DNA from: a virus
Lineage: Duplodnaviria; Caudoviricetes
Strand: one strand, 5' to 3'
Virus record (IMG/VR): IMGVR_UViG_3300042878_000174
Location: 1-63,168 of that record
DNA: 63,168 bases
Below, in pieces: positions 13,646 through 54,922 of the stretch. The translations under genes and the position numbers were made by a program. How positions within the stretch are numbered: position 1 is the first letter of the stretch; every line of letters begins with the position of its first letter. The notes beneath the pieces are model-generated. The model worked only from the letters and a program-made list of their open reading frames with translations. It did no database searches and had not been told where the DNA came from.

Positions 13646-15142
13646 TTAATAATATTCCATGCGTCTGCGATATACAGGTTCATCTGGCTCATCAGAATCG
13701 ATGGAAATGAACCCGCCTTGACGGAATCTCATCAAAGCTTGGCTGGAGGAGTCAACAAGGTCGTCATGATCGCCATTGGGGAAGGAGGCCAGTTCATCCA
13801 TCACTTCTTCAGCCCAACGAGTCTCTGGACACCAGACAACACCTGAAGCAAACAGATCGGAGATTGCGTTTACACGCGAGATCTTATCGTTTCCTTTGCC
13901 CGGTGTAAACTCAGAAAGCGGAATGCCCATCTTACGCATCTCATAGATGAGCGGAGCACCTGCGGCTCTCTTCTCCACGATCAATGTATCTGGCTCCCAT
14001 TCTTGATAAAGCTCCAAAGCCATTTTCTTAAGCTCTGGAAACTCCATGCGTTGTTTAAACGCATCTAGCAGGATGATGTTTGGCCTCATGTCACCGGATT
14101 TGTTAGGGTGTTGGAAGACACCCCATGTAGTGCAGGCAGAATAGTCTGCGCGGTTGTTCTTTTCAAAGGCCGTGTCCCAGCTTTGGATGATGTAATCGCA
14201 CTGCGGGGGTGTATCTTTGTCCCAGATAGACCATTGTTCCCGCTTAATGATTGCGCCTTCTTCGGATGTGGGGTTCTGTTGGTACTGAGCCTCCCATTTA
14301 GCGACTGGTAGTTCAGCTTTTAGCGCTTCTAGCGCTGTTTTTGACCAAAAAGCTGGCCATAAAGGCGTTCCAGACGGCATGATTGCCGGAAAATCAATGA
14401 TTTCCCACTGATCTACGCCATCTTTCCCTGCGTTTTTGAGAATCTGGCCGGTCAAGTCACGTTTCGACCACCTAGTCATCACAATAATGATGGCTCCACC
14501 CGGCTGTAAACGCTGGCGAGGGCCAGATGTGAACCACTCATAGACATTATCAAACACCGCAGGGTTGCCTTGCTTGGCTTCCTGCTCCGAATGAGGGTCG
14601 TCAATGATTAAAAGATCGGCTCCTTTACCTGTGACAGCACCCCCAACGCCAATAGCGAAGTAATCACCACCCACGTGAGTATTCCAGCGACCGGCGGCCT
14701 TTGAATCGCTCGATAGCTTTGTATCAAATACCTTCTGATAGTTCTCTGAAGAGACAAGATTCCTAACCTTTCGTCCAAAGCCTGTAGCAAGTTCTGCGGT
14801 GTGTGCAGTCTGAATGATCTTCTTCTCAGGAAACTTACCCAAGAACCACGACGGGAGCAGATAAGAAGCAAACTCAGACTTTGTATGCCGGGGCGGCATG
14901 TTGATGATCAGGCGCTTGAGATCACCACGGGCAACCCTTTCAAAGGCATCGGCCATTATGGCGTGGTGTTTGCCAGAGATGAAGATAGGCCACATCTGCT
15001 GAACAAAGAACAAATAGGATTCTTTGCATCTCTCAACCCGATCAAACTCTAGGAGCTTCTGAACCTTGGCTCTTTCTGCGGGAGGGGCAGTGTCGGCAAG
15101 CGTCAAATAAAGCTCAATCTCTTTGCGGGTCAGTAGGCTCAT
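13646..15142 (-). CDS. terL: Terminase large subunit
   Basis: Walker A MPPRHTKS, Walker B LLIIDDP, MTRW coupling motif, nuclease SWDTA and HDDLVDS. Confidence 0.95.
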   Translation of the reverse strand: MSLLTRKEIELYLTLADTAPPAERAKVQKLLEFDRVERCKESYLFFVQQMWPIFISGKHHAIMADAFERVARGDLKRLIINMPPRHTKSEFASYLLPSWFLGKFPEKKIIQTAHTAELATGFGRKVRNLVSSENYQKVFDTKLSSDSKAAGRWNTHVGGDYFAIGVGGAVTGKGADLLIIDDPHSEQEAKQGNPAVFDNVYEWFTSGPRQRLQPGGAIIIVMTRWSKRDLTGQILKNAGKDGVDQWEIIDFPAIMPSGTPLWPAFWSKTALEALKAELPVAKWEAQYQQNPTSEEGAIIKREQWSIWDKDTPPQCDYIIQSWDTAFEKNNRADYSACTTWGVFQHPNKSGDMRPNIILLDAFKQRMEFPELKKMALELYQEWEPDTLIVEKRAAGAPLIYEMRKMGIPLSEFTPGKGNDKISRVNAISDLFASGVVWCPETRWAEEVMDELASFPNGDHDDLVDSSSQALMRFRQGGFISIDSDEPDEPVYRRRMEYY

Positions 15143-15369
15143 AACGCAGCCATTTCTTTAACAGACTTATCCACCAGCTTAATGGAATGGAACTTGTACG
15201 GACGAACCGTTAGGTGGCCATCCTCTTTAAGGCGATGAATGATGCGATGCACATTCGACTTAGAACTCAATCCAATTCCTTTGGCAATAACTTCATAGGA
15301 CGGAGGCACGCCATGGAGCCGAATATACGCCCGAATGAAATCTAGTACTAATTGCCTATGCTCGGTCAT
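15139..15369 (-). CDS. LexA-type winged-HTH DNA-binding protein lacking the peptidase domain
   Basis: VLDFIR.Y...G.PPSY..IA..IGLSS.SNVH..I..L...G.L; 76 aa from ATG at 15369. Confidence 0.8.
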   Translation of the reverse strand: MTEHRQLVLDFIRAYIRLHGVPPSYEVIAKGIGLSSKSNVHRIIHRLKEDGHLTVRPYKFHSIKLVDKSVKEMAAL

Positions 15370-15419
15370 TGATGTGAGTTTAAACGATAATGAGAACGTT
15401 CGCAAGTGTTTAAACGAAA

Positions 15420-15592
15420 ATATATATAGGGTGGGGGGTTTGGATTTGGATTGGATAGGGGGGGGTGTTCTGTGGGAGATGTATGGAAGAGTGGAATAGA
15501 GCGTAATAGACGGGCGGGTGGTCAGCGGCTACAGCGGGGGGTGCGGGGGCGGTGGGTGACGCACGTCCACGCACATCAAACGGGTGGGGCAT
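15420..15592 (+). other. Strongly G-skewed intergenic tract, candidate packaging / genome-end region
   Basis: Several G4-G9 runs between TerS 3' end and the LexA/TerL genes; flanked by GTTTAAAC at 15378, 15408 and 15609. Confidence 0.45.
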
Positions 15593-15594
15593 CA

Positions 15595-16242
15595 TCACGT
15601 CACGCGCTGTTTAAACGCGGTGGCTTGCACGTCTTGCACCGATGACCGATCCCCCTTGAGTAGACGCAAGTGGCTTGCAAGTTCACGCTTGAGTTGGTCA
15701 GCAGTGACAGGCGCTTTGTCTTGAACATCACTAGGTGTAAACAGGCCACAGGCTTTACCCATTAGTTCCAGTGCTTTAAGTTGTGTGCTTGGTTGACTGT
15801 CTTTACTGAGTGCAAGCAAGCCCTTGAGCACATACCTTTTAGATGCAACCATGTCATCTACCAAGTGCTCTATGGTTTCCCCCCAAGCTTCTTTGAGCAG
15901 TGCTTGAACCCTTGGATCACGCATCAGCTTGTTGGCATTGGCTGATATAGATGCATCGCTCCCTGTCGAGTTTTTGAAGCCCTCACGGTAGCTTTGCCTG
16001 AGGCTTTGCCCTCTTATAACCCCTTGCACGAATGCCATCGCAGATGGCGACAACGGCAAGCTTCTTTTGTGCTCCCCTGCTACTGGTAGTCCGTCTCTCC
16101 GCTTCCTAGGCTTAGGTGCATTCTTAGCTAGAGCATCAGCCAACTGTTTCGCTTCGCTCATGGGTTCTGCGCTCTGATCCTCCCATTGCCCCTCGGCCTC
16201 GGCCAAGGCCTCTCGATACTCAGCCTTTGTAGTCTTACTCAT
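15595..16242 (-). CDS. terS: Terminase small subunit
   Basis: AFVQGV..G.SLRQSY..GF...ANANKLMRDPRVQA HTH and LKALELMGK; upstream of TerL; GGAGG RBS before ATG at 16242. Confidence 0.7.
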   Translation of the reverse strand: MSKTTKAEYREALAEAEGQWEDQSAEPMSEAKQLADALAKNAPKPRKRRDGLPVAGEHKRSLPLSPSAMAFVQGVIRGQSLRQSYREGFKNSTGSDASISANANKLMRDPRVQALLKEAWGETIEHLVDDMVASKRYVLKGLLALSKDSQPSTQLKALELMGKACGLFTPSDVQDKAPVTADQLKRELASHLRLLKGDRSSVQDVQATAFKQRVT

Positions 16243-16326
16243 AAACACCGCCTCCATTTTGTGACTGACCAGTTCAATAAATGCTCACTTAGTCCACGTT
16301 ATGAACTGTTCGTATTATGCAACAAG

Positions 16327-16436
16327 TTATCCACAAAGTTATTCATTTTGGTGCACTAAGGGTTTTCCCACGTTATCCACACCAGCCCGAAAGTTATCCA
16401 CACAAAAAGTGGCCAAAACAGGGGTAGTTATCCACA
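16327..16436 (+). promoter_or_regulatory. Cluster of four perfect DnaA boxes
   Basis: TTATCCACA at 16327, 16373, 16394 and 16428, same orientation, each preceded by G. Confidence 0.85.
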
Positions 16437-16707
16437 AAATCAGGGTTTACCCTATGGCCTCTAGAATCGATTTTAAGGCCTCTCTGAGCGTCCGTTTTCC
16501 GAAGTGGCTACCCAGCCCTTGACCCCCTCAAAAAAAACGCACCTAGACGTTTTGTTGTTTTTAAACCACGGCCAAAAACAGGCCAAAAAATGACCGTTGG
16601 CACGCATCATGCTACGCGCACGCGCACGCCTGATTTCTTTTTTGATGGCCTAGAAAACCATGCCAATCCAATAACCCCACAACTTAGTCAAGTAAATATT
16701 GCCATGC

Positions 16708-16737
16708 TTGTGTAAACAATATCAATGCCCCTAAAAT
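16708..16737 (+). promoter_or_regulatory. Candidate early sigma70 promoter
   Basis: TTGTGT-18 bp-TAAAAT followed by hairpin CATGCC-N6-GGCATG, upstream of the first early gene. Confidence 0.45.
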
Positions 16738-16781
16738 GCACACATGCCAAATTCGGCATGCAACCTAAAGGTGCTTACATC

Positions 16782-17369
16782 ATGCTTATTCATACTGAGA
16801 GAGAAACCTACTTACAGAGTGCAGTCGAGGAGTTACGCCCCTCATTCTCAGCCAACGGCCACACACTGCCATTGGCAATTCGCGTGTCATGCGCTCTGCC
16901 CTCTAATGCTAAACGCTCAGGGGCAATTGGCGAGTGTTGGGCTGACACCCGCTCAAGTGACGGCCACTATGAAATTTTCATCAGCCCCACACTGGACAAC
17001 CCCGCACGTGTTTTTGACGTGCTCATTCATGAACTCTGCCACACGGCCAAGGGGTGCATGAACCACGGTGTTAACTTCCAAAAACTGGCTGAGGCCATGC
17101 TCTTGATTCCCGCCTCGAACACTTGGAAGGCGACTGTCGGTGCACCCACTTTCATGGCCGCTTATGGGTCAATCATCGAGGGCTTAGGCGACTACCCTCA
17201 TGCCGCCCTTGACATGTCATCGCGCAAGACGCAAGGCACTCGCATGTTGAAGGCCTCTTGCCCCTCATGTTCCTACACTGTTCGCCTGACGGCCAAGTGG
17301 GCATTCGACTCATACGGCAACCCCCGCCTACCCATCTGCCCCTGTGGCGATACCTTAGCCCTCGTTTAA
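16782..17369 (+). CDS. SprT-like zinc metalloprotease with C-terminal zinc ribbon
   Basis: VLIHELCH...NHG..F; CPSC...CPC; start reassigned to ATG at 16782 after AAAGGT. Confidence 0.75.
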   Translation: MLIHTERETYLQSAVEELRPSFSANGHTLPLAIRVSCALPSNAKRSGAIGECWADTRSSDGHYEIFISPTLDNPARVFDVLIHELCHTAKGCMNHGVNFQKLAEAMLLIPASNTWKATVGAPTFMAAYGSIIEGLGDYPHAALDMSSRKTQGTRMLKASCPSCSYTVRLTAKWAFDSYGNPRLPICPCGDTLALV

Positions 17370-17388
17370 ACATAGGAGAGTCAACATC

Positions 17389-18810
17389 ATGGCAACTGCA
17401 AATCAAACCCTCAAGCTTCAAATTGCACGTATCAAAAACACCGTGCTCAATGGGGCAATGCTCCAGTTCAAAGGCCGTCCCATGGCCAACAAAACCGAAG
17501 CCATGGAGGCACTGGCTGAAATGGTTATCGCGGGTAGCATCACCCTTGAAATGATTCAAGCCGCCCCTGAGACGGCCATCAGCGCGACTGAGTCAGTCGA
17601 TGCCTCTATGGTGCAAGCCGTGGGGAGTGTGGCATCACGTGCCGAGCAAGTGGCACTCGATGCCCTAAAGCTTGGCATCAAGGCCGAGGCCATGGCCGGA
17701 AACCTTGAGAGCGTGATCACTGAATTGCGCGATGACCTCAAGGCCATGGGCAAGCAAGCCGCCAAGGGCATCGATGCCGCCTCGATCCAAGCGCAAGTGA
17801 CCAAGGCCGTGGCCGATGCATTCAAGCCCTTTAATGAGGCCGTGCAAGCCACTGGCTCACATGCGACAGTCGCGGCCATGGCATCGGTGCATGTCATCGA
17901 TCGCAAGCCCTGTCTTGACGTGTTCGGCATTGATCTGCGCGACATGAAGGGCGACCCCATGATGGTTGACATTTACAACGCACCCGATGCCCCGCCTGTA
18001 GATCCTCACTTTGTGTGGACTGAGGGCATTTTGCGTCACTTCATTTTGTCTCAAGACACTGGCGAAAACACGTTCATGGGAGGCGATAAAGGCACTGGTA
18101 AAAGTCAAAGTGCCGCCCAGTGGGCAAGCCGCACAGGCCGCCCCTACGTGCGCTATAACTTTCACAAGCAAACCACTGCCGACGATTACGCGGGTGCTCA
18201 GGCCTTGGAAAATGGTTCGAGTGTGTTTAAACGTGGCGACTTTTTACAGGCATACGTCAGCCCCGCGACCGTGATTCTGCTCGATGAAATTAGCTTTGCG
18301 AATGCGGGAAACCTTGCCACATTGAACGGCTTTTTGGAGGCCGATGCCGTGGTGAACTATGGCGGCATGACGCATCGCAAGGCACAAGGTGTCATGATTT
18401 TTGGGGCTGATAACACATTCGGCAATGGCGATGAAACAGGCCGTTATGCGGGGACAACCCCCATGAACTCGGCAACCCTCGATCGCTTTAGCCGCATTGT
18501 GCCGTTTACTTTCATGCCCCTTGACTTGGAAACCAAGGCCGTGGTCAATCGCACTGGATGCGATCCTCGCCTCGCTGAACACGTGCTCAAGGCCATCAAT
18601 GTGGCGAGGGCTAAGGCGAAGACAGGCGACATTGTAGAAGCCCCCTCGATTCGCTCTGTAATGTCATTCATTCGAGCCGTCAAGGTAATGACCGTAGATG
18701 AGGCTTGGAAGACAACCGTGGCCGCACGTCAGCCCTCTGAGTCAGCCCCAGTGCTTGAGTCGATAAAGCTTTCATGCATCGATTCCAAGCTGATCAGCAC
18801 TTTAATTTAA
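17389..18810 (+). CDS. MoxR/CbbQ/CobS-type AAA+ ATPase
   Basis: Walker A GDKGTGKS, Walker B ILLDE, ADNT.G.G...GRY.G, NSATLDRF, PSIR. Confidence 0.88.
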   Translation: MATANQTLKLQIARIKNTVLNGAMLQFKGRPMANKTEAMEALAEMVIAGSITLEMIQAAPETAISATESVDASMVQAVGSVASRAEQVALDALKLGIKAEAMAGNLESVITELRDDLKAMGKQAAKGIDAASIQAQVTKAVADAFKPFNEAVQATGSHATVAAMASVHVIDRKPCLDVFGIDLRDMKGDPMMVDIYNAPDAPPVDPHFVWTEGILRHFILSQDTGENTFMGGDKGTGKSQSAAQWASRTGRPYVRYNFHKQTTADDYAGAQALENGSSVFKRGDFLQAYVSPATVILLDEISFANAGNLATLNGFLEADAVVNYGGMTHRKAQGVMIFGADNTFGNGDETGRYAGTTPMNSATLDRFSRIVPFTFMPLDLETKAVVNRTGCDPRLAEHVLKAINVARAKAKTGDIVEAPSIRSVMSFIRAVKVMTVDEAWKTTVAARQPSESAPVLESIKLSCIDSKLISTLI

Positions 18811-18825
18811 TAGGAGCGTTTAAAC

Positions 18826-19908
18826 ATGAAGAACACTTATTTTGGTTGGGAGTTCCGCCCTGCCGTTGAATTATTCGGGCACAAGGTTTGTGCCGCTTTG
18901 ACACTGCCCTCAGTGACCATCGAATGGTGCGAAGGCACTCAAACTGCCGCCATCAGTTCCAAGGGCAAGATTCGCCTCGCCAACGTGCGCGATGACGCGA
19001 TCATGACTCGCAAAGACCTCGCCAAGTATGTTGGCTTTGTGATCCATGAATTACTGCATCGCAAGTACACCAACTTCAACGTGCGTGCCAATAGCCAATA
19101 CGTTGACGCACTGCACAACGCGATCGAAGACGCTTGGATCGAGTCCACTGCCATCAAGGCGGGACTCACAGGCAACATTGCTGAACTGCTCGGCACTCTC
19201 ATCGATGACATGGCAACGCAAGCCCTTGACCACGTTCAAAGCGATGGCAACAAAATCGACTGGTCAGATCCCGCGCAATACCCCTTTGTGCTTGCAGTGT
19301 ATGCACGTCCCCACGCGACAGTGCAAGTGCCCATGGCCAAGGGCTTGAAGCCCATCTTTGAAGAGGCCGTGAGACGGACTGCCCTGTGCTCTAGTTCATT
19401 CGATACCTTGGCCGTGGCCGTGTGGGTGTATGAGCGTTTAAACATGCTAGACCAAGAGCAACCCCCTCAGCCGCCTGTTAACCCTGAGCCGCCCCCACGT
19501 GGCAAGCCCAGTGACAAGCCCAAGGGCAAAGACGTAGGTCAGCCCTGTGATGATGGCGAACCCGCTGAAGGCGAAGAGGGCGAAGATCAAGGCCAAGGCG
19601 GCACTGGTGAGGGTGAGGGCGAAGACGGCCAAGGCGATGGCGACGACCAAGGCCAAGGCGACAAGGGCAAGGGCGATGCCGAGGGCGAAGGCTCAGGAGA
19701 CGGCCAAGGCGAGGCTGAGGGCGACGATCAAGGCGAGGGCGGGGGTGGGATAGCACGTCCCCCAGTGCGCGTGAATGCGGCCAACGTAGAGCCTCAGAAC
19801 CGCGCCCCTAAGGGCACTGAGTCCACAGGCACTTACTCTGCACAATTCCGCTTGGCACGTGATGCGTACCACGTGGGCGACTCTCCTAAATTTAACTTGA
19901 AAGGCTGA
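18826..19908 (+). CDS. CobT-N-like HExxH domain protein with Gly/Asp/Glu-rich tail
   Basis: FVIHELLH..YT...HNAIEDAWIE followed by a long GEGEDQG acidic region. Confidence 0.8.
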   Translation: MKNTYFGWEFRPAVELFGHKVCAALTLPSVTIEWCEGTQTAAISSKGKIRLANVRDDAIMTRKDLAKYVGFVIHELLHRKYTNFNVRANSQYVDALHNAIEDAWIESTAIKAGLTGNIAELLGTLIDDMATQALDHVQSDGNKIDWSDPAQYPFVLAVYARPHATVQVPMAKGLKPIFEEAVRRTALCSSSFDTLAVAVWVYERLNMLDQEQPPQPPVNPEPPPRGKPSDKPKGKDVGQPCDDGEPAEGEEGEDQGQGGTGEGEGEDGQGDGDDQGQGDKGKGDAEGEGSGDGQGEAEGDDQGEGGGGIARPPVRVNAANVEPQNRAPKGTESTGTYSAQFRLARDAYHVGDSPKFNLKG

Positions 19909-19910
19909 TC

Positions 19911-20597
19911 ATGATTCCCGCCAAATTACGTTATGAAGTTAAGCGTTTGTTTGAGAACACCGCGACCGAATCATTCGAGCGCAACCTTAAGTCAGGCCGT
20001 TTAAACGTTCGGGCACTGACCAAGCATTCCATCAGCCCCAATCTGTTTCAGCGCAGATATGAGGAAGAGGGAATCGACTCTGCCGTGGTCATTCTGCTTG
20101 ACGTGTCCGGCTCGATGTATGACGGCATCAGGGGCAAGGCCGGACAACCCCGCACAACCCGCATGGCATCAGCCGCCCCTACGTGCGCGGCTCTGCTTGA
20201 AACCCTGAGCGCGGCTCAAGTGGCGACTGCCCTTGTGACATTCGACGATTACACGTCAGTGCTTAAGCCTTGGAACATGAATCACAAAAAGGCGATCACC
20301 CTCTTGGAGTCCATCGATGGCATGGGCGGCTCAGATGACGCGACCGCCCTCGCGCACGTGCACAACATGCTCTACAGGCGGCCTGAGCAGAGGCGGCTCT
20401 GCTTTGTGCTGACGGACGGCCAAGGCGACATACGTCAGGCCAAGGCTCAAGTGGCATCAGCCGCCCGACTAGGGGTGACAACGATCGGCATCGGCATCAA
20501 TGCTGACGTGTCGCACGTCTACCCGAACCACGTGCAGATCGACTCGCTCGATGACCTAGGCCGAGTCACATTCACCAAGCTTAAGCTTGCCGCCTGA
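19911..20597 (+). CDS. von Willebrand A (MIDAS) domain protein, CobT-C-like
   Basis: SGRLN..AL, VVILLDVSGSM, FVLTDG, IGIGI; GAAAGG RBS. Confidence 0.88.
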   Translation: MIPAKLRYEVKRLFENTATESFERNLKSGRLNVRALTKHSISPNLFQRRYEEEGIDSAVVILLDVSGSMYDGIRGKAGQPRTTRMASAAPTCAALLETLSAAQVATALVTFDDYTSVLKPWNMNHKKAITLLESIDGMGGSDDATALAHVHNMLYRRPEQRRLCFVLTDGQGDIRQAKAQVASAARLGVTTIGIGINADVSHVYPNHVQIDSLDDLGRVTFTKLKLAA

Positions 20598-20614
20598 GGG
20601 GGGCTTACCCCTCA
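20595..20614 (+). other. GC-rich hairpin without U-tract after vWA gene
   Basis: TGAGGGG-GGCTTA-CCCCTCA. Confidence 0.4.
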
Positions 20615-20658
20615 TGACCGTAGTAGAAGATAAGCGTTTAAACACTAGGAGAGAAACC

Positions 20659-20886
20659 ATGGACGGATTAGACAATCATTACTCTGCGCTTTGGGTTGCC
20701 AATGAGCAGAGCGCACGACCGCGCCTCAAGACTTACACCGTGTCAGTGGCCGTTGAAGGCTACGTGGACGTGGTTATTGATGCCGCTAGTAGGGAAGAGG
20801 CCGAAGCCTCAGCCCTCGACAAGGTAGAGGTACAGGGCATGCTTGTAACTGAATTAACAGTAACTGACGTGGAGCAATGGACATGA
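20659..20886 (+). CDS. Small early protein, DpnD/PcfM-like
   Basis: KTYTVSV.......IDAASREEA; AGGAG RBS before ATG at 20659. Confidence 0.65.
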   Translation: MDGLDNHYSALWVANEQSARPRLKTYTVSVAVEGYVDVVIDAASREEAEASALDKVEVQGMLVTELTVTDVEQWT

Positions 20887-21065
20887 AAACCTACAAAGTG
20901 ATTGCCTCGCTGACAACGTACTTTTTTGAGTACGTAGAGGCTGAGAGCGAAGAACAAGCTTATGACATCGCCAAAGACATGGACGGAGGCGCGTTCATCC
21001 CTGTAGACCAAGGCGTGGGGGGTGACTGGTCTATTGATTCAGTTTATGAGGTGACCAATGACTGA
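20883..21065 (+). CDS. Small early protein, DpnD/PcfM-like
   Basis: MKTYKV........VEAESEEQA; ATGA overlap with previous gene. Confidence 0.7.
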   Translation: MKTYKVIASLTTYFFEYVEAESEEQAYDIAKDMDGGAFIPVDQGVGGDWSIDSVYEVTND

Positions 21066-21252
21066 CGCACAAAAAATTAAATGGCTGACCACGGCCTTAC
21101 GTGATCTTGCCATGTCGGCTGATCGATATATTGATGACGGCTCATGGATTGATCACTTGTACAACGATATTCAAGAGGCAAAAAATGCTCTTGCTTATAT
21201 GCAAAAAAACAAAGGGGGGAAGAATGATGCACACACGATGGCAAAAGCTTGA
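21058..21252 (+). CDS. Hypothetical early protein
   Basis: GAGGTG RBS; overlapping operon packing. Confidence 0.6.
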   Translation: MTDAQKIKWLTTALRDLAMSADRYIDDGSWIDHLYNDIQEAKNALAYMQKNKGGKNDAHTMAKA

Positions 21253-21316
21253 GCGAGTACTGCTCTTGGTGGGACTTATTGTCCTGATGCTTGACCTATT
21301 CTATTGGAGGCCATGA
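21224..21316 (+). CDS. 30-aa single-TM early peptide
   Basis: MMHTRWQKLERVLLLVGLIVLMLDLFYWRP; G-rich RBS; ATGA overlap with next gene. Confidence 0.6.
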   Translation: MMHTRWQKLERVLLLVGLIVLMLDLFYWRP

Positions 21317-21579
21317 TGTTTAAACATATTACATCGCACCCTTGGACTGTTGGCCGTCGAGGCCTCAAGACCAGTAACTCAGTTTGGGGATATGAGGGCG
21401 ACCATGGCATTCCGATCGTGGCCGACTGCTTCAGCAAGGGCACTCCCATAGCGACTCAGAGGGCGAATGCCCGACTGATAGCGATCGCCCCTCAAATGTT
21501 CGAGATCATTCAGAAGATGCACGGCAACGCTGAGGCCATGGCCTTGGTGGCTTACATGGAGAAAAGCCATGAAGATTAG
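21313..21579 (+). CDS. Conserved phage early protein (ANARLIA.AP motif)
   Basis: HITSHPW...ANARLIAIAP; GGAGG RBS. Confidence 0.7.
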   Translation: MMFKHITSHPWTVGRRGLKTSNSVWGYEGDHGIPIVADCFSKGTPIATQRANARLIAIAPQMFEIIQKMHGNAEAMALVAYMEKSHED

Positions 21580-21808
21580 AACCCCAAAAGACCAAGACTT
21601 TGAACGCATTTACAAGGCCTATGCGGGGCTGATTGAATGGATCGGAGGCAATGACGTAGACGGACAGGAAACCCTTGGCCTACTTGTCAAAGCCTCGGTG
21701 GCCTTGGCCGTGTCGAATGATGTCTCAAAAGAGGACATGTTGGAGGTGGTGGGTGTTACGTATGAAATGGAACGCATGATGCGTCCCCCATCAGGCGAAG
21801 TGCATTGA
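21569..21808 (+). CDS. Hypothetical early protein
   Basis: GGAG RBS; overlaps neighbours. Confidence 0.65.
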   Translation: MKIRTPKDQDFERIYKAYAGLIEWIGGNDVDGQETLGLLVKASVALAVSNDVSKEDMLEVVGVTYEMERMMRPPSGEVH

Positions 21809-22050
21809 TGTTCAAGGTCAAAGCAATAACCCATCATGCACCCGATTTTCTCAAAGCCGCTTACAAACACGGAAACATAATAGATCTTATGAATCATGAA
21901 CGCTTCATAGAAATTGGCGAGGCCTACATCACGTTTGCCGCGCCTAAAAGTTTCCGAGTTTATAAGATGGGACAACATCGAGTGCCCCGATATTGTGGTC
22001 AATACGATTCAATCATGCGTGCAGCTTTTTATGCACGTTTAAACAGGTGA
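21805..22050 (+). CDS. Hypothetical early protein
   Basis: Last ORF before the terminator; overlaps previous stop. Confidence 0.55.
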   Translation: MMFKVKAITHHAPDFLKAAYKHGNIIDLMNHERFIEIGEAYITFAAPKSFRVYKMGQHRVPRYCGQYDSIMRAAFYARLNR

Positions 22051-22094
22051 CGCTGTCGCTGCTGTCCGCTGCTGGCTGCTGTGGACGTTTAAAC

Positions 22095-22120
22095 AGGGGG
22101 CATTTAGCCCCCTTTTTTTT
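22095..22120 (+). terminator. Rho-independent terminator ending the early operon
   Basis: AGGGGGC-ATTTA-GCCCCCT followed by a T run, at a convergent junction. Confidence 0.85.
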
Positions 22121-22508
22121 ACCAAATTAAATCGTCTAACAAGTTTATAAACATGGGGGTACGCTCACCCACATAAGCCCCTCGGATATTGAACTCGTAA
22201 TACTCTGCGGCCTCGTCCCGATCCATGCCGTCCCGCTCACATAGAACATCAATGATCTTAGATATATCGTAGACCACGGCCTCACGCATACCAATGCGCT
22301 CAGAAATGCCAACGATTGCCGCATCAAACTCAGGCTCTGACAGAAATAATAATTCCCCATCCCCGTATTGATTAAAATGTTCACGTATGTTTAAACGATA
22401 GTCCTGAAGTTGAGCTGGAGCTTCAGGAGTGTTTAAACGCTTTGAGCTGGCCAGCTCACCTGCAAGCTCACCAGATGAGCCACCCTTGTTTAAACGATTA
22501 GAAGGCAT
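22119..22508 (-). CDS. Conserved phage hypothetical protein
   Basis: FDAAIVG......AVVYD..K....L...DGM...EA.EY.EFNI.GAYVGE.TP.F; the first ~40 codons coincide with DNA palindromes, so the start is uncertain. Confidence 0.7.
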   Translation of the reverse strand: MPSNRLNKGGSSGELAGELASSKRLNTPEAPAQLQDYRLNIREHFNQYGDGELLFLSEPEFDAAIVGISERIGMREAVVYDISKIIDVLCERDGMDRDEAAEYYEFNIRGAYVGERTPMFINLLDDLIW

Positions 22509-24180
22509 CTAGATTCTCCGAGTAAGTTCCTGCCGTTTTGTTGTAAAGCATTGTTGTTTCCCCTTGTGTACCCACCCACCGATAGCGACATTTCCACACT
22601 GCAATTTCTACGTGGTGCTCTTTGCGATGGACAGTCAATCCGCAGTCGGTCTTTGCCCACCACGCCATCGATCCCGCAATCGACATTCCGTCGGGGCGAG
22701 GTTGCTCCATTCCGTGTCGGGTCACCTTAGATGGGTGAGCGATGAACCAAGTATGAACGTCATGTGCCTTGCAGAACTTCTGAACCCTCGTCAGCATATC
22801 GCTGATGGCCGCAGTCTCTGTGCCGTCGCCCTTGGGTAACTCTATGTAGTTATATGGGTCAATGACTAAGCCTCTAACACCCATGCGCTTGACTGCCGCA
22901 CGTGCCCTCTCAAGTATCGAGTCCAACGTGCTTGGCTCTTCTCCGTTCGTATCGATGAACAAGAAATGATCCTTAACGAATTTAAACGCTATGTCTTTGT
23001 CCTGTTCCGTCATTCTGTCTTTGCCTTCAAAGAACCTACGCTTGGTGTAGATCTCCATGAGCCTACTGATATGGATCTCAGGCTGATTCTCAAATGAACA
23101 CACTGCGAACTTCCACTGATGATCACGTGCAAGGTTGACCATGATCTGATCAATGAAGTTGGACTTACCCGATGAAGGGTAGCCCGTTACAACAGTGAGT
23201 TGTGCCGGTGCGACTGTGTAAACGCTATCGACCGACGAGTACCCTGTTGAGAACCCCTTGCCCGTGCCCTTTGTATAAAGATCGTTTAAACGATCAAAGT
23301 ACGTCCCAGCATCGCTGATTCCTGAGATCGGATACGCAGCGGCAGAGTCTATGACTTTAAACACCTCACCAGTCCGTGCCGGGTCGTCAAGATGTACCTC
23401 GTTTAAATCCTTCTTGGCAAACTTGGCCAGCCGACATTTCTCTTTGCCGATCCTTCGGGCTAGTTCTTCTGCGAGTGCTTGCCCTGCGTTGTCCTGATCC
23501 GTGGCTAAGACTACGTAGGGTGCGGCATCAATGATCTCTCTTGCGTTCCATACATAGGCAAACTTCTTATCCTCGGACGGCAAGACCTTACCATCAGCCA
23601 CCTTGATCGGAGCACCCGATGGCACACTCACTACGTTCTCGATGCCTAGTTCGAGGAGGGTCAAGCAGTCTATCTCCCCCTCTACAATGATTAAAGGCTC
23701 ACCCTTCTTGACCATATCAATGCCAAAGAAGTCATGAGCACCGCCTGAGTCTTGGGTAAAGTCTTTGTCGGGGAATGATCGGTACTTGGCCGCGACCAAT
23801 GCACCGTTGCGGAAGTAAGGAAAGCCAATTGCATCTGCGCTTCGACCTAACTTACCAAAATACTTCTCTGATGCAAACAGCTTCATCTTGTCTGCTGTCT
23901 GTTGTGAAATGCCCCGCTGCTGTAACCAGTCGTAGTGTAAACGCTCTAGTTTGTTTGAAACAATCGTTGGGTTGGGAACTGCTGACAATTTTCTCTCCTG
24001 TTGTGGTTGTACTGAGCCGCTTGTCTGGCAATGATGGCAGTGGAACACGACCGCCCCGTCTTCTTTGCGGGTTAAGGTCATGTCCTTTGAGTTAGCCTTC
24101 TTGCGTTCTGTCGAGCAATAAGGGCAAGCTACCCTCGTTGACTCGTTGAAGTGGAATTGATCCACAAAAGCAGGAGTCAT
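22498..24180 (-). CDS. T7 gp4/Twinkle-like primase-helicase
   Basis: CPYC..CHHC zinc finger, TOPRIM IVEGEID and DQDNAG, Walker A GYPSSGKS, VIDPYN, AHP.K. Confidence 0.92.
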   Translation of the reverse strand: MTPAFVDQFHFNESTRVACPYCSTERKKANSKDMTLTRKEDGAVVFHCHHCQTSGSVQPQQERKLSAVPNPTIVSNKLERLHYDWLQQRGISQQTADKMKLFASEKYFGKLGRSADAIGFPYFRNGALVAAKYRSFPDKDFTQDSGGAHDFFGIDMVKKGEPLIIVEGEIDCLTLLELGIENVVSVPSGAPIKVADGKVLPSEDKKFAYVWNAREIIDAAPYVVLATDQDNAGQALAEELARRIGKEKCRLAKFAKKDLNEVHLDDPARTGEVFKVIDSAAAYPISGISDAGTYFDRLNDLYTKGTGKGFSTGYSSVDSVYTVAPAQLTVVTGYPSSGKSNFIDQIMVNLARDHQWKFAVCSFENQPEIHISRLMEIYTKRRFFEGKDRMTEQDKDIAFKFVKDHFLFIDTNGEEPSTLDSILERARAAVKRMGVRGLVIDPYNYIELPKGDGTETAAISDMLTRVQKFCKAHDVHTWFIAHPSKVTRHGMEQPRPDGMSIAGSMAWWAKTDCGLTVHRKEHHVEIAVWKCRYRWVGTQGETTMLYNKTAGTYSENLDAF

Positions 24181-24428
24181 TTCATGCTGCCGTCTGGGTT
24201 ACGTTTAAACGAACGGTTGGCCGCAGCCGGTTTCGCTCGTAAGTTGCTGATGACCGTTGTCCCACCCTTGCTCAAAGGTTTTTTGTGGTCAACGTCTTTG
24301 CCATCTCCCTTGTGCACCACACCTTTTGCTTCAAGCATTCTGCGGGCTTTGTTTCTCTGCGCTCTTTTCTTCTTGACGGCCTCAGTGCCATCGTAGTTAG
24401 CGTATTCCTGTTTGTAATCCCTAGTCAT
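24177..24428 (-). CDS. Small HNH endonuclease-like protein
   Basis: RDYK.EY...KDVDHKKPLSKGG....NLR.....NRS. Confidence 0.8.
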   Translation of the reverse strand: MTRDYKQEYANYDGTEAVKKKRAQRNKARRMLEAKGVVHKGDGKDVDHKKPLSKGGTTVISNLRAKPAAANRSFKRNPDGSMK

Positions 24429-24747
24429 TTTTAATCACTTTCATCACTCGTTGCGATCTACCTGATGCGGCCTTACGCCTTTCGCCAGTGTCGGCAATGA
24501 AACCTTTGCGTATCAAAGGAGCAAACCGAGGTGATATGGTTTGAACACCGTGATGGGGAAAATGTCTCATGACTTCGTCGGACGTACAGCCATTTGGATA
24601 CTTGGCAATGACCTCGTAGACCATTGCTTCAAGCTGAGTTGAGTCTACAGAATTGGCCGCGCTTACGCTAGTGTCCGGATCAGTATTTCGCACCATCTCT
24701 TGCGGTGCTGTACCAAATATTCTGTCAAATAATGATTTTTGTTCCAT
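24421..24747 (-). CDS. Winged-helix DNA-binding protein
   Basis: R.TDP.TS..AA; G.T.DE....ISPR...L...G.I..TGERR...SGRSQRV; AGGAG RBS. Confidence 0.7.
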   Translation of the reverse strand: MEQKSLFDRIFGTAPQEMVRNTDPDTSVSAANSVDSTQLEAMVYEVIAKYPNGCTSDEVMRHFPHHGVQTISPRFAPLIRKGFIADTGERRKAASGRSQRVMKVIKND

Positions 24748-24768
24748 GCTTCTCTCCTATGTTGAAAA

Positions 24769-24972
24769 TTAAAGTTCTAATTCAATTTGCTCAGGTGCGG
24801 TGTAGTTCTCTATTGGTACTCCTTTGTCTAGTTGGTTAATAATATCTTCCTGTGTGGCGACTCGTATTGTCATAATCCCTAATGACACATGCGCTATCGC
24901 TTGTCTGCGGTTGGATGCACGAATCAGCCTGACCTGATCTCCTACGCCTATCGTGTAAACACGTTGCTTCAT
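24769..24972 (-). CDS. Hypothetical protein
   Basis: RLIRA....QAIAHV...RVATQED pattern; GGGGA RBS. Confidence 0.65.
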   Translation of the reverse strand: MKQRVYTIGVGDQVRLIRASNRRQAIAHVSLGIMTIRVATQEDIINQLDKGVPIENYTAPEQIELEL

Positions 24973-24974
24973 GC

Positions 24975-25208
24975 TTATCCCCTTGCTCGGATGCGCTCTG
25001 CAAGGAGTGCCGCATCAACACGCCTATGGTTAGAGACACGATCATCCCGCGCTCTTGCTTCACAAATCATTGCACACTCCTCACGCTCTTGCTCAATGGC
25101 TAATTTAACCAAAGCCACTAAATGTGGCGTTGATACAGTCCACGTTGTGTAATGCTTGTTCTCTTGGATCACTTTGTGCAGTGCCTCTAGAATTTCATCT
25201 TGTTTCAT
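24975..25208 (-). CDS. Hypothetical protein (ERE.CA.IC...IRARG family)
   Basis: EQEREECAMICE...AERIRARG; AGGAG RBS. Confidence 0.7.
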   Translation of the reverse strand: MKQDEILEALHKVIQENKHYTTWTVSTPHLVALVKLAIEQEREECAMICEARARDDRVSNHRRVDAALLAERIRARG

Positions 25209-25500
25209 GTTCTCTCCTTACATATTTTTTTACGAACGTTGGTATGTCCTTGTAGTAATACCATACGTATTTGCCCTTAACACACCATTTACATTTAGAC
25301 ACCGCCACAATGAATTTTCGGTTGACTAGCAAGCCATGCTCATCCTGATCAACCTGACATCCTTGCTCCAATAATGCAATCTCCAGTTCCATTCTGCGTT
25401 GTGGATTACTGTTGAACACATCACTGTCTGCGGTGCGGTCTAGTTCAGCCTGTATCCCTGCTTTTAATGCTTTAATCCTTGCCTCGGTGTCCATATACAC
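25195..25500 (-). CDS. Hypothetical protein, first gene of the replication operon
   Basis: GGGAG RBS lies inside the leader stem; overlaps next gene. Confidence 0.6.
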   Translation of the reverse strand: MYMDTEARIKALKAGIQAELDRTADSDVFNSNPQRRMELEIALLEQGCQVDQDEHGLLVNRKFIVAVSKCKWCVKGKYVWYYYKDIPTFVKKYVRREHETR

Positions 25501-25960
25501 GCCTGTACTCCCTGTTATAAGCCTCTAGCTTTCCCCTTTGGTGAATGTTTGAACAAAGCACAGCCTTACCGTGGTCATAACCAAAGTTCGCACTGTGCTG
25601 TGATTTCCCCTTCGGAGCCATGTCATCACCTCGCACTAACCCAGACTATTTCAACCACCGCGCTCTAGGTTTCGCCCACGCTCCCTGCTTTGGCTTGCTC
25701 GTGTAACAGGGTATTTAACAGGCGACCACCGACGTACCGCATCGCTTGCGAGTTGTCGTAGGAGGGGGTGAGACTAGGACTGCTTCACATAAAGCAGTGT
25801 GTTTCAAAACGAAAGGAAGTCACAATGGCGCTAACCCATTGCACAGTCCTAGTCTCAAAATGACAAAAGCCGTTACAACTGCCCTCGGTAGGAACCCAAA
25901 GGTAAAGACCAAGGGCGAGAGCATGTGTAACGGCTTTAAATCATTGCTTCCTACGGCAAC
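25500..25960 (-). ncRNA. Long multi-domain structured leader / ncRNA
   Basis: No credible ORF; long stems GAGACTAGGACTG/CAGTCCTAGTCTC, AAAGCCGTTACA/TGTAACGGCTTT, CCCTGTTA/TAACAGGG, AGCACAG/CTGTGCT. Confidence 0.65.
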
Positions 25961-25966
25961 GATTGA

Positions 25967-25997
25967 ATTATAAGCACAACTAATTGGGTTGTGTCAA
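25967..25997 (-). promoter_or_regulatory. Consensus sigma70 promoter with 19-bp spacer containing a dyad
   Basis: TTGACA (25997-92), TATAAT (25972-67), CACAAC-N7-GTTGTG between them. Confidence 0.7.
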
Positions 25998-26019
25998 GCG
26001 GTATCAAAAATATTTTTTA

Positions 26020-26183
26020 AGGTACGTCTCGGCGGGTTTTAGGTACGTCTCGGCGGGTGCGTTTAAACATCAGCAGGTGAACCCGGCGGAGCATTTTGGT
26101 GCGTTTAAACACCAACCAGCAAACCCGGCAGGCCGAAATTCTTCGGAAAAGCCGAAAACGGAACTGACAAAACTGACGAAACT
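26020..26183. repeat. Phased direct repeats, candidate replication origin
   Basis: AGGTACGTCTCGGCGGGT at 26020 and 26041; GGTGCGTTTAAACA at 26056 and 26098; AACCCGGC at 26080 and 26122; AACTGAC at a ~9-10 bp interval near 26162. Confidence 0.65.
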
Positions 26184-26231
26184 CCTTATAATCAAGGTTC
26201 TCTCTCCTCTCAGCAGTTGCCTTTGTTGAGA

Positions 26232-26669
26232 TTAGCCCCGTCTGGTTCGCTTGACGGGGCCTTTTTTTGGCGCTACCTCAGGGATCTTTTCAATGATCAT
26301 CTCTGTGCGGGGGTTCTCAGGGTCTAGCCCCCAGTAGCAATGCCTCTCTTTAACCTGACGATCGTTCTCATATATAAGACCCTGCATCAGGTCTAGGATC
26401 AGGCTCTCATCCAAGTCGGGTCGCCTTGAGGCGTAATAAATATGCAGAGTAATCCGCAGATCCCCTGTCATTAGTGTAGCTAACGGCTTGCACTGTTGTT
26501 TAAAAACATCAGAGTAACTTAATGCTTTCTTAGACTTAATCAGTCTAGACATACCACCGAAGCGTACAACCCTCCTCGAATTTGCTTTCGAAGCTGGCTC
26601 ACCAAAAATAATTTGTGATAGCACTTGCAATTCTGATGTAACATCACTATCATTGTAGTTCGGATTCAT
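26232..26669 (-). CDS. rusA: RusA-like Holliday junction resolvase
   Basis: GEPASKANSR, RRPDLD, ILDLMQG.IYENDRQV, D.ENPR.E; start reassigned to ATG at 26669. Confidence 0.85.
   Translation of the reverse strand: MNPNYNDSDVTSELQVLSQIIFGEPASKANSRRVVRFGGMSRLIKSKKALSYSDVFKQQCKPLATLMTGDLRITLHIYYASRRPDLDESLILDLMQGLIYENDRQVKERHCYWGLDPENPRTEMIIEKIPEVAPKKGPVKRTRRG
26625..26653 (+). promoter_or_regulatory. Sigma70-like promoter for the recombination operon with spacer palindrome
   Basis: TTGCAA-17 bp-TATCAT; TGATGT-A-ACATCA at 26634-46. Confidence 0.6.
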
Positions 26670-26688
26670 AAACAACCTTGGAGAGAAG

Positions 26689-27567
26689 ATGAAGATAACC
26701 AACAAACAGAATCTGCCCGCACCCATAGTGGCTTTAGTCTCACGTAACTACTACAGTAAAGGCGCTTCACAGTATAGCGTTACTGAGTTAATGTCGCCAC
26801 CAAAGATTAGAAGGTTACGCGAACAGTACGATTCAGAGATGGAGATTGACGTGACTAAGCTGATCGCATCTCAGCTAGGCACATTCATGCACGGCAAGCT
26901 TGAGGCCAAAGAGTGTGAGGGCTACACCAACGAGGAACGCATCTTTACGGAAGTCGATGGCGTGGTGATCAGCGGAGCGATTGATCTGCAACAACAAGTC
27001 GAGGGCGGGGTAGTGATCATTGATTACAAGTTTGTCAAGGCTTGGTCAGTGATGCAAGCTATGGCACGTAACAAAGATGACTGGGAGATTCAACTAAACA
27101 TCTACAAGTGGCTTGTGGAGTCGGTCAAACGTGTGCCAGTCAAGGGCTTGCAGATCTGCGCGATCATCAAAGACTACACGCCCCACTCTGCTCAGGACAA
27201 CTATCCCGAAGCTGAGGCCGTGATGATTGACATCCCAATGTGGGACTCTGTAACCACAGAGGCCTACGTCCGTAAGCGTTTAGAGATGCACCGCAATGCC
27301 AAGGTGAATCATGAGTTTGGTGAGGAGCTACAGGCTTGCACCGATGAGGAAAGATGGATGAGCGAAACCGTCTTTGCTGTAAAGAGAGAAGGACGCAAGT
27401 CTGCGATCCGTTTATTTCAAACCATAGAAGAAGCCACAGAGTTGGCAGAAAAGGAAAAAGGCTATGTCGAAACCCGCCAAGGAGAACCCAAGCGCTGCAC
27501 AGGAGATTTCTGTGGAGTCAGCAAGTGGTGTAAACAGTACCAAGGAGAAATCAATGTCACCGCATGA
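26689..27567 (+). CDS. PD-(D/E)XK RecB/Cas4-like exonuclease
   Basis: YSVTEL, GT..H, E.RI, SGAIDL, IIDYK, QLNIY, C-terminal RC...FC....WC.QY. Confidence 0.85.
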   Translation: MKITNKQNLPAPIVALVSRNYYSKGASQYSVTELMSPPKIRRLREQYDSEMEIDVTKLIASQLGTFMHGKLEAKECEGYTNEERIFTEVDGVVISGAIDLQQQVEGGVVIIDYKFVKAWSVMQAMARNKDDWEIQLNIYKWLVESVKRVPVKGLQICAIIKDYTPHSAQDNYPEAEAVMIDIPMWDSVTTEAYVRKRLEMHRNAKVNHEFGEELQACTDEERWMSETVFAVKREGRKSAIRLFQTIEEATELAEKEKGYVETRQGEPKRCTGDFCGVSKWCKQYQGEINVTA

Positions 27568-28243
27568 TTTACTTAAGCTTAACGTCAACGAGCACACCGA
27601 AAAGAAGAATGGCCTTACGTACCTTTCATGGGCGTGGGCATGGGCTGAGGCTCTTAAGGCCGACTCCACTGCATCATTCATTGTCCACACGTTCGCTGAC
27701 AAACCTTACATGGATGTCAACGGCACAGGCATGGTATGGGTCACCGTCACTATGTTTGGCCAAGGCCGTACATGCATGTTGCCAGTGATGAACCACCGTA
27801 ACCAACCTATCCAAAGCCCTGACGCTTTCCAAGTCAACACGGCCATCATGCGTTGCATGACCAAAGCGCTTGCCTTGCATGGACTTGGCCTGTACATCTA
27901 TTCGGGAGACGATCTTCCGCAGTCAGACGATGCCCCTACCACCATGGGCGAATTGACTAAAAAGGAAGATGGGCCGAAGTACGAAAAGATCATTGCCAAG
28001 ACTGCGCCTAAGAAGACGATTCAGCCCACTACATGGGATCCGTCTGATGAGAGCCGTAAGTTGTTTACCGAAGGAATGATTGAGTGGACGACCCACTGCA
28101 CCACAGTAGCAGGTTTAAACAGCTACTGGAAGAGCAATGAACTTCAGCTTGATTCGCTGAAGGAAACGCACCCTCCTCTGTACGAGGAGATCTTAAGCCG
28201 CTTCAAAACCTTGAAGCTACAACTAACTGAGGAAACAAAATGA
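27554..28243 (+). CDS. sak: Sak (Rad52-like, DUF1071) single-strand annealing protein
   Basis: NVNEHTEKKNGLTYLSWAWAW, LPVMNHRN, NTAIMRCMTKALALHGLGLYIYSGDDLP; AAGGAG RBS before ATG at 27554. Confidence 0.88.
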   Translation: MSPHDLLKLNVNEHTEKKNGLTYLSWAWAWAEALKADSTASFIVHTFADKPYMDVNGTGMVWVTVTMFGQGRTCMLPVMNHRNQPIQSPDAFQVNTAIMRCMTKALALHGLGLYIYSGDDLPQSDDAPTTMGELTKKEDGPKYEKIIAKTAPKKTIQPTTWDPSDESRKLFTEGMIEWTTHCTTVAGLNSYWKSNELQLDSLKETHPPLYEEILSRFKTLKLQLTEETK

Positions 28244-28557: not shown

Positions 28558-28566
28558 GGAGAGATC

Positions 28567-29609: not shown

Positions 29610-29814
29610 TGGATCAAGGAATCAATGCACTGGCTGTAATGAATATTTCAACAGCAACAAAGCCTTTGACAGACATCGAACCGGAGAGCATGGCAAAGAC
29701 CGAAGATGCCGCACACCAGACGAAATGATTGCCAAAGGCATGTCAAAGAACCCCGCTGGATTTTGGATTACAGAACTTATGTTGGAGAGATTTCATGAAA
29801 ACGACACCGTATAA
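29599..29814 (+). CDS. Small zinc-binding protein (FDxHR type)
   Basis: CTGC..YF....AFDRHRTG......RC; GAGGT RBS. Confidence 0.7.
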   Translation: MKLSGSRNQCTGCNEYFNSNKAFDRHRTGEHGKDRRCRTPDEMIAKGMSKNPAGFWITELMLERFHENDTV

Positions 29815-30201: not shown

Positions 30202-30213
30202 GGAGAAGAACAC

Positions 30214-54920: not shown

Positions 54921-54922
54921 GG

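Follow-up and report, generated by a model that had tools for sequence, protein, structure and literature searches.

Experiments have shown for only a handful of model phages which DNA enters the host first and how it survives restriction. T5-like phages are resistant to restriction systems of Types I, II and III as long as their first-step-transfer (FST) region is without recognition sites, and the available portion of the paper concerned (PMC10644984) assigns no gene to the protective function. The region at which injection of T5-like phages stops contains around eight DnaA boxes, according to the available part of a second report (bioRxiv 10.1101/866236). Marinomonas phages of the T7 family evade a Type I system where their leading, first-injected region lacks the motif, despite motifs elsewhere in the genome (PMC12455610, in its available part), and the leading regions of plasmids are described, in the sections available, as GC-rich, codon-adapted and not consistently poor in short palindromes (PMC13478746) and as enriched in anti-defence genes (PMC11541004). 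Here we describe a segment of an uncultured freshwater phage genome, positions 15151 to 22020 of the IMG/VR record IMGVR_UViG_3300042878_000174, from which about a dozen short words, tolerated in the remaining DNA, have been almost entirely purged; the window that was analysed, 63,168 nt in length, is the entire record, a tailed phage genome. A first-pass annotation of this DNA had proposed that the genome starts near 15.5 kb, that its entry is staged and that the early operon encodes an undescribed anti-defence function. The word ‘undescribed’ needs tempering, as T5-like and T7-like phages already provide established cases of the principle in the available text of PMC10644984 and PMC12455610; what is found here is its occurrence in an unrelated, uncultured family, with an unusually complete purge of many words and a gradient beyond it.

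The likeness to T5 is that a terminal segment of approximately 8–10% of the T5 genome lacks sites which are tolerated elsewhere, as far as the available text describes it, and the likeness to the T7-like phages is a leading region without motifs that are present in the remainder of the genome. Conjugative plasmids offer a further parallel, in that their leading region is the first DNA in and, in the sections cited, is GC-rich and codon-adapted, as is reflected here in a GC content at third codon positions (GC3) of 0.60 in the segment versus 0.45 elsewhere; the depletion of palindromes, inconsistent in plasmids according to the same sections, is near total here. The segment and the words concerned are as follows.

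15151..22020, purged segment: depleted in GCWGC, GGSCC, CGSCG, CCGG/CCSGG, CCAGV, VCAGC, SCAGG, GAGCT, CAGAC, ACCTG and others

GCWGC occurs 137 times in the window (GCAGC 71, GCTGC 66) and not once in the segment, the last site before the gap being at 15146 and the next at 22021, exactly as the first-pass annotation had stated; at the density seen elsewhere in the window, 16.7 sites would be expected (Poisson P 5.5e-8). The reported absence of GGSCC also stands, with 53 copies in the window and none in the segment, while GGCC is abundant (251 in the window, 65 in the segment). Of the 310 copies of CCAG in the window only 11 are in the segment, eight of them CCAGT, and of 211 copies of CTGG again 11, all of which are ACTGG. 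The claim that between 16520 and 22070 these words are only ever CCAGT or ACTGG is correct on its left side, the three CCAG[AC] of the segment (15174, 16382 and 16512) all lying left of 16520, but not on its right, where GCTGG and GCTGC occur from 22052. Ala-Ala pairs are indeed mostly written GCCGC, the first codon ending in C in 15 of 20 pairs in the segment open reading frames (ORFs; G 4, A 1, T 0), compared to C 42, G 36, T 30 and A 23 in a sample of other genes. When seven avoided words are combined into a composite, which has 1119 sites in the window at a mean spacing of 56 bp, only four sites are found between 16512 and 22021, an interval that includes the genome's four longest gaps, and the non-coding stretch 16258–16724 has few as well. 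The return of the words, placed by the first-pass annotation at 22021–22080, is equally clear, with eight composite sites at 22021–22078, the first of these positions being 30 nt ahead of the last stop codon.

Base composition and codon usage do not account for these absences. Under a Markov model built within the segment, GGSCC has 0 sites against 28.2 expected (P 5.7e-13), CGSCG 0 against 17.2 (P 3.5e-8) and GCWGC 0 against 8.2 (P 2.9e-4). In 500 synonymous-codon shuffles of the ten plus-strand ORFs of the segment, a control that leaves codon-pair context free to vary, the observed counts were 0 against a shuffle mean of 21.7 for CGSCG, 1 against 11.9 for GCWGC, 0 against 10.8 for GGSCC, 0 against 10.6 for CCWGG and 11 against 39.0 for ACGA/TCGT. 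A blind scan of all 5-mers in 5-kb sliding windows, the check proposed in the first-pass annotation, ranks the segment first in the genome, with a score of 417 over a baseline of about 200 and sixteen 5-mers absent at an expectation of at least 5; the minor peaks, at 45–47 kb and 55 kb, correspond to a gene of low GC content and to a fibre gene rich in repeats. The features in and around the segment, to which the rest of the analysis refers, are given below.

15139..15405, minus strand: 88-aa ORF between the small (terS) and large (terL) terminase genes, similar to the N-terminal winged-helix domain of LexA; placed at the left edge or immediately beyond it
15409..15608: non-coding element of 200 nt, G-rich on the plus strand, bracketed by the palindrome GTTTAAAC at 15408 and 15609
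15595..16257, minus strand: small terminase subunit, terS (phrog_51, E 1.8e-8)
16323..16438, plus strand: four perfect DnaA boxes, TTATCCACA, within 116 nt of the divergent intergenic region between terS and the operon
16725..17369, plus strand: SprT-like Zn-metallopeptidase (HExxH) with a C-terminal zinc ribbon; conserved start probably at 16782
17389..18810, plus strand: MoxR/CobS-like AAA+ ATPase (PF07728, E 1e-11; phrog_249, E 8.8e-43)
18826..19908, plus strand: 360-aa protein, similar to the CobT N-terminus in language-model features only
19911..20597, plus strand: VWA domain protein, CobT C-terminal-like (PF13519, E 4.3e-14; PF11775, E 5.8e-7)
20587..22050, plus strand: run of small ORFs closing the operon, with phrog_1273 (21304–21579) as the sole match
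22035..22094, plus strand: GCTGY repeat tract between two copies of ACGTTTAAACAGG, at the return of the avoided words
22095..22121, plus strand: intrinsic terminator hairpin and T run, where the operon ends and the full purge gives way sharply
22119..32803: replication and recombination genes (primase/helicase, RusA, exonuclease, Sak annealing protein), in part depleted of the segment's avoided words (observed/expected 0.34–0.61 for the two main word sets)

The depletion is word-specific, since one-letter neighbours of the avoided words are plentiful: in a separate count, TCAGC/GCTGA occurs 33 times, CCAGT/ACTGG 16 times and GGCC 60 times, as opposed to 0–3 for VCAGC, CCAGV and GGSCC. All 24 word pairs examined are depleted in both orientations, and the selection is therefore on DNA and not on mRNA. 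A translation or codon-context effect of early genes, unrelated to restriction, could draw on the GC3 of the four large ORFs of the segment (0.61–0.69, the highest in the genome) and on the presence of AAGGA and other Shine-Dalgarno-like words among those avoided, but is contradicted by this strand symmetry, and we give it very little credence: short palindromic words dominate among the avoided words, the non-coding 16258–16724 is also poor in sites, and terS is purged on the other strand. The last of these is a late gene of ordinary codon usage (GC3 0.51), yet it retains two composite sites where 8.2 are expected, with shuffles as low at a frequency of 0.002.

The genome as a whole is also without many words, as is known of phages that avoid restriction sites genome-wide, the difference here being a second, regional layer on top. 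CCWGG (101.6 expected) and GGWCC (39.7 expected) have no sites in the whole genome and GGYRCC has 2 where 54 are expected, while CYCGRG, GRGCYC, CGGCCG, GGCGCC, CTGCAG, GCCGGC, GGTCTC and GGTACC are all at zero, an extreme avoidance which suggests that the host has many restriction systems. Fourteen words that are purged outside the segment are near-absent from it too, with a summed count of 2 against 31.5 expected, so that the avoidance in the segment is a superset of the genome-wide one. The words purged from the segment only are, by the Markov test, GGSCC, CGSCG, GCWGC, GAGCT and CAGAC, to which a pool of 12 related segments adds CCGG, ACAGC, ACCTG and CCAGC.

All 16 relatives found in IMG/VR with the ATPase (79–99% identity) share this bare stretch and its edges. 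Seven of these could be aligned over the segment at 80–88% nucleotide identity (12–20% divergence), and for each the codons that differ from the window were redrawn 300 times with the codon usage of the segment. The composite sites in these changed codons, observed against null mean, were 11/48.1, 5/36.0, 6/37.2, 2/54.5, 0/51.0, 0/51.8 and 1/48.4; that is, real counts of 0–11 versus 36–55 expected, which in 7/7 relatives are under the lowest of the 300 draws (21–36). The purge is thus kept up by selection and is not an inherited leftover. The identity of the segment and that of its flanks rise and fall together across five relatives, and in the Synechococcus phage MinM2 genes for a MoxR ATPase and a VWA protein likewise form a divergent operon between terminase and primase, in synteny with the one described here; this co-divergence and synteny indicate that the module is old and vertically inherited.

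These results bear on the idea that the operon is a cassette of foreign origin, from another phage or host, still carrying the composition left by the restriction history there. The distinct GC content and codon usage given above would suit such an origin, as would the best named-phage match of the ATPase, which is only 28% identical, and the word CGCG, which is undepleted in the segment and depleted elsewhere. As a sole cause, it is contradicted by the changed codons, which avoid making sites in all seven relatives; moreover, the segment obeys all 14 genome-wide avoidances, co-diverges with its flanks around an operon syntenic in MinM2, includes a purged terS of ordinary codon usage, and has no close copy in 185,579 species genomes (searched with the ATPase). 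A foreign origin is therefore a highly unlikely explanation. Taken together, the codon shuffles, the changed codons, the depletion in both orientations and the superset relation support a region-specific, DNA-level selection of the restriction-avoidance type, and to this extent the interpretation put forward in the first-pass annotation has held.

In the wider family, two more distant ATPase queries returned 87 further loci, and 14 of these with long flanks were viewed. The architecture recurs in them, with a cluster of DnaA boxes, a GC-richer plus-strand operon and GTTTAAAC motifs. Eight of the 14 have a bare stretch at the equivalent place with different word sets, some tolerating VCAGC and SCAGG, two being without GGCC and three without GCWGC over the whole locus, and two of the 14 purge GCWGC alone. 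In an equal-length comparison of segment and flank, for which 16 of 22 loci had flanks long enough, words absent from the segment only outnumber those absent from the flank only in 15 of 16, the exception being L056 (2 vs 7); in the window and in loci L005 and L010, 12–13 five-mers are absent from the segment yet present at least 6 times in the flanks, and the reverse is true of 0–1, with the caveat on this comparison that the segment-only words of GC-richer lineages include several that are simply AT-rich. In a pool of 14 of 17 close sequences (three had no DnaA-box cluster by the rule used), each 250 nt holds 4–6 composite sites in terL and portal; 750 nt to the left of the first DnaA box the figure is about 0.5, and it stays at 0–0.3 for the 5.5 kb that follow. 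The purge begins approximately 1 kb left of the operon, i.e. it covers the small terminase gene, and is tied to position rather than to a gene set or to codon usage.

Beyond the segment, the depletion decays in one direction only, as seen when the sites in each gene are compared with that gene's own codon shuffles. The observed/expected ratio is 0.86 in portal and 0.88 in terL, directly left of the break, falls to 0–0.24 across 15.15–15.6 kb, and then recovers rightwards over about 20–25 kb. It is 0.24 in terS, 0.00–0.11 in the operon genes and 0.40 in the last small ORF; at 22.1–26.7 kb it is 0.34 for the palindromic word set and 0.58 for the CWG set, at 26.7–32.8 kb 0.61 and 0.36, respectively, in the polyvalent protein gene (33–42 kb) 0.57 and 0.78, and in all later blocks 0.70–1.00. 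A third word set gives a step without a gradient (0.00–0.06 inside the segment, 0.80–1.12 outside), and substitute words used as a control show the mirror trend, from 1.75 down to 0.91. As a control for circularity, the words were chosen solely by comparing the segment with a distant 20-kb block, in the window and three complete relatives, two of the four genomes belonging to other lineages. In the blocks not used for the definition, all four gave 0.17–0.65 in the first 4.7 kb past the segment and 0.48–0.71 in the next 6 kb, and 1.00–1.20 in the 4.5 kb just ahead of the break. A non-exhaustive literature search found no earlier description of such a genome-wide sawtooth of word avoidance.

Ordered entry starting at the break would be expected to leave this asymmetry, abrupt on one side and slowly recovering on the other, which neither a cassette nor a transcription unit nor a symmetric effect of an origin predicts. 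On balance, 15.15–22.02 kb is probably a leading region like those of T5 and T7, with entry beginning at an end near 15.2–15.6 kb. The sawtooth lends indirect support to this entry end and polarity, and the genome start near 15.5 kb put forward in the first-pass annotation fits a one-way gradient that breaks at 15.15–15.6 kb; a physical end there, staged entry and any protective role of the operon are inferences.

Two other arrangements were weighed against the gradient. In the first, all of the DNA would enter at once, and the segment would be a cassette proof against cutting, which survives cleavage of the genome and expresses help for co-infecting or later phages. The purge itself, the shuffles and the changed codons would look the same, and the sharp edges at a terminator and a non-coding element would suit it; the GCTG-rich tract and the one copy of CCACCAGC at the edges loosely recall Chi-type signals. 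Such a cassette does not predict a one-way gradient of 20–25 kb or an abrupt break between terL and terS, and seems improbable to us. CCACCAGC, the complement of the Escherichia coli Chi word, has 20 copies on the plus strand, nearly all in glycine-rich fibre genes (53876–60105); the lone copy at 15171, at the left edge of the purge, may be there by chance, and the idea of Chi sites at both edges was dropped because the word is common in glycine-rich repeats.

In the second, the polarity is the opposite and T5-like, with an end at about 22.1 kb, leftward entry and a stop at the DnaA boxes. The cluster of DnaA boxes lies inside the segment, injection stop regions with about eight such boxes are described for T5-like phages in the available part of bioRxiv 10.1101/866236, and the right edge, at 22.02–22.09 kb, is razor-sharp and marked by a repeat element. 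Partial depletion, however, extends to the right of 22.1 kb and not to the left of 15.15 kb, as the ratios for terL and portal show, and the purge reaches approximately 1 kb beyond the DnaA boxes into terS, which leaves this polarity with scarcely any probability.

With rightward entry of a leading region, the course of infection could be as follows. The segment would be the DNA that meets the restriction enzymes of the host first or for longest, ahead of a protective state, and selection would strip it of every short word that these systems recognise, whereas the same words would be tolerated, increasingly so with distance, in the DNA that follows. A genome end or packaging site would be situated in the G-rich element between terS and terL (about 15.4–15.6 kb), and this end would exit the capsid first; terS would then enter, followed by the DnaA-box cluster and the plus-strand SprT-like/MoxR/VWA operon, with a pause or slowing at the 22.1-kb terminator, after which the replication and recombination genes would follow and the structural genes, through terL, would come last. 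Packaging sites are usually near terS, as in lambda and P22, and if packaging runs from a site beside terS towards the terminase genes, as those phages would suggest, the segment would be the last DNA packaged and the first ejected.

Several observations weigh against a leading region of this kind. Of 24 public sequencing runs that were matched, all as assembled contigs, four had their contigs compared with the window; these bridge 15.4, 16.3 and 22.05 kb and gave no molecule ends, a contig crossing 15.4–15.6 kb in three of the four. Map order is confounded with temporal class (early, middle, late), and the gradient fits both. MinM2, which has the same layout, has no local purge, and 4 of the 14 wider-family loci have little or none. 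By the Markov model, CGCG is not depleted in the segment (26 vs 23.1 expected, 16001–22000) and is so elsewhere (60 vs 163.5), which would be surprising if restriction enzymes of the present host cut at CGCG; codon-pair context, uncontrolled in the shuffles, is a further reservation. A simple scan found no sigma-70-type promoter ahead of the operon, and neither a phage RNA polymerase nor a known entry motor was found, the ORFs of at least 500 aa (793, 560, 2975, 594, 1755, 694, 547 and 502 aa) having been scanned with PHROGs and/or Pfam without a polymerase match. In several other lineages, CGCG is instead missing from the segment.

At the left edge, the break of the purge coincides with the conserved G-rich non-coding element beside terS, which is a candidate packaging site or genome end. 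Its architecture, namely a AAAATATATATA head, G runs and a GAGTGGAATAGAGCGTAA-like block, is recognisable in seven of nine sequences, including L050 and L066 of the wider family, the remaining two having no anchor by the rule used, and there is no Rfam match for 15409–15608. One of the four public-run assemblies breaks at the element, contigs of run X7 meeting at 15408–15427. Contig ends of the relatives were considered as marks of genome ends and rejected, as their positions scatter. The 88-aa ORF next to the element matches TIGR00498 (E 3.6e-10) with 39.8 bits, under the cut-off of 110.95, and contains 2 composite sites against 1.5 expected.

The four DnaA boxes are situated approximately 0.75 kb from the left edge, the entering end by the gradient, and only one further box is found in the window (60606); relatives have clusters of 5–6 at the equivalent place. 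The cluster may be an origin, the site of a regulator or a T5-like signal for holding DNA. DnaA boxes inside the segment are common to T5 and this phage, as far as the available text on T5 goes, although here they are near the proposed entering end and not the far end. The two differ further in that no long terminal repeat is visible here, in a genome known from a circular-type assembly only, and in the gradient past the segment, where T5 would suggest a pure step. The phages are not related; the large terminase is closest to those of pelagiphages of the HTVC023P type and of MinM2.

The comparison with the T7-like phages is similarly mixed. The early operon (16725–22050, plus strand) is directed inwards and closed by a terminator, with the polarity of entry deduced from the sawtooth. 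T7 enters slowly and in order, and a graded exposure would fit such entry. The T7-like phages differ in having a phage single-subunit RNA polymerase, which is not among the ORFs of at least 500 aa here, in an Ocr-type DNA mimic where the leading genes here are SprT-like, MoxR and VWA, and in the words concerned, which here are short and Type II-like rather than Type I motifs.

The operon heads the purged segment, and its position is conserved across the phage family. The domains found in it are SprT-like, MoxR/CobS-like and VWA/CobT-like only. The SprT-like protein, in which HELCH is present, scores 20.9 bits for PF10263 (gathering cut-off 25.6) and matches phrog_6361 (E 1.4e-34); its structure model has a pLDDT of 86.6 and Spartan (6mdw) as the top fold match, at a weak E of 3e-3, and a PDB sequence search returned nothing. 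HExxH is missing in 5 of 16 aligned orthologues (L024, L026, L038, L043 and L021), and these lineages are still purged, which argues weakly against the protease as the protective agent. In several lineages, among the orthologues L023, L024, L026, L038, L043, L035 and L021, the motif is replaced (AMLCH, SQLCR), with the zinc ribbon retained. The ATPase reaches 50.9 bits for TIGR01650, against a cobaltochelatase equivalog cut-off of 558.55, and a score of 26.3 bits for TIGR01651 compares with a cut-off of 759.05; by their sequences, these proteins are classed as a CobS/CobT-like MoxR and VWA pair, far from the cobaltochelatase cut-offs. The 360-aa protein between them has a score of 0.96 for its language-model assignment, to a cluster with PF06213 on 73% of members, and has no Pfam, NCBIfam or PDB sequence match.

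An anti-defence or entry function of the operon is a reasonable guess from its position. It is possible, although unlikely, that the operon of SprT-like, MoxR (CobS-like) and split CobT-like VWA proteins makes later-entering DNA insensitive to Type II restriction; if so, the widespread phage ‘cobS/cobT’ genes would be anti-restriction or DNA-entry genes and not cobalamin genes. PADLOC assigned none of its families to the 10 segment proteins, and no function of the A1/A2 type is named among the PHROG matches of the operon, A1 and A2 themselves not having been used as queries. A variant of staged entry has a different selective agent, the avoided words being targets of one or more early nucleases of the phage itself, which destroy host DNA, so that only the DNA then in the cell must lack them. 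The purge and gradient would be the same, and a similar idea has been put forward for A1 of T5 in the available part of bioRxiv 10.1101/866236. Family searches found no nuclease domain in the operon proteins, and the word sets differ between close lineages, which varying host enzymes explain more easily than one phage enzyme; we hold phage nucleases to be an unlikely agent.

The value of the leading-region reading is that sequence alone yields an internally replicated signal, a near-total purge with a one-way gradient in 4/4 genomes, which points to the entry end, the polarity and the leading operon in an uncultured freshwater phage family, and nominates SprT-like, MoxR and VWA genes for the protection of later-entering DNA. 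If it is true, the sawtooth would be a general reader of entry polarity and of host restriction repertoires in uncultured phages; were physical mapping to confirm it, a scan of this kind could read off the entry polarity of metagenomic phages and catalogue the restriction specificities of their hosts.

At the right edge, the element of ACGTTTAAACAGG copies and GCTGY repeats is shared by the window, L002, L006 and L100, and GTTTAAAC brackets the GCTGY repeat as well; the strong terminator hairpin comes next, at 22095–22113. The one Rfam match in 15000–22300 is sub-threshold, to the Brucella sRNA CI337 at 22090–22172 (21 bits vs a gathering cut-off of 229).

As for the genome itself, its first 603 nt are repeated by the last 603 (1–603 and 62566–63168) with 21 mismatches, and because this overlap interrupts an ORF, the assembly is circular in type with an arbitrary start and a unique length of approximately 62.6 kb (about 62,565 nt); the mismatches suggest that the assembler used a second strain to close the circle. 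Profile searches identify the large terminase, portal, head genes, small terminase, primase/helicase, RusA and the Sak annealing protein, together with a weak match to a DNA ejection protein, and no tRNAs were found in the genome. The closest named relatives of the large terminase are 023Pt_psg01, DSL-LC04, the pelagiphages HTVC027P and HTVC023P and MinM2 (plus Planktothrix twins), at 46–58% identity; its PDB sequence search returned nothing, as did a nucleotide search of the segment against named phages. Near-identical DNA is present in lake-water metagenomes of 2018–2024, which is not independent evidence because several may be the source sample.

The polyvalent protein (2975 aa, 32784–41711, minus strand) carries ADP-ribosyltransferase (ART-PolyVal), LPD38 and GP88 domains and is probably delivered together with the DNA. 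A 1755-aa ORF (45384–50651, minus strand) has the lowest GC3 in the genome (0.32) and no family match, the only PDB resemblance being that of repeats at residues 1500–1597 to NANP-type repeats. The palindrome GTTTAAAC has 49 copies in 63 kb, where about one is expected, often exactly between a stop codon or Shine-Dalgarno and the next ATG (examples are at 1780, 17364, 18818, 22037, 22087, 41712 and 44423); five copies lie within 22037–22488, none lies beyond 52648, and it is present in all related loci viewed.

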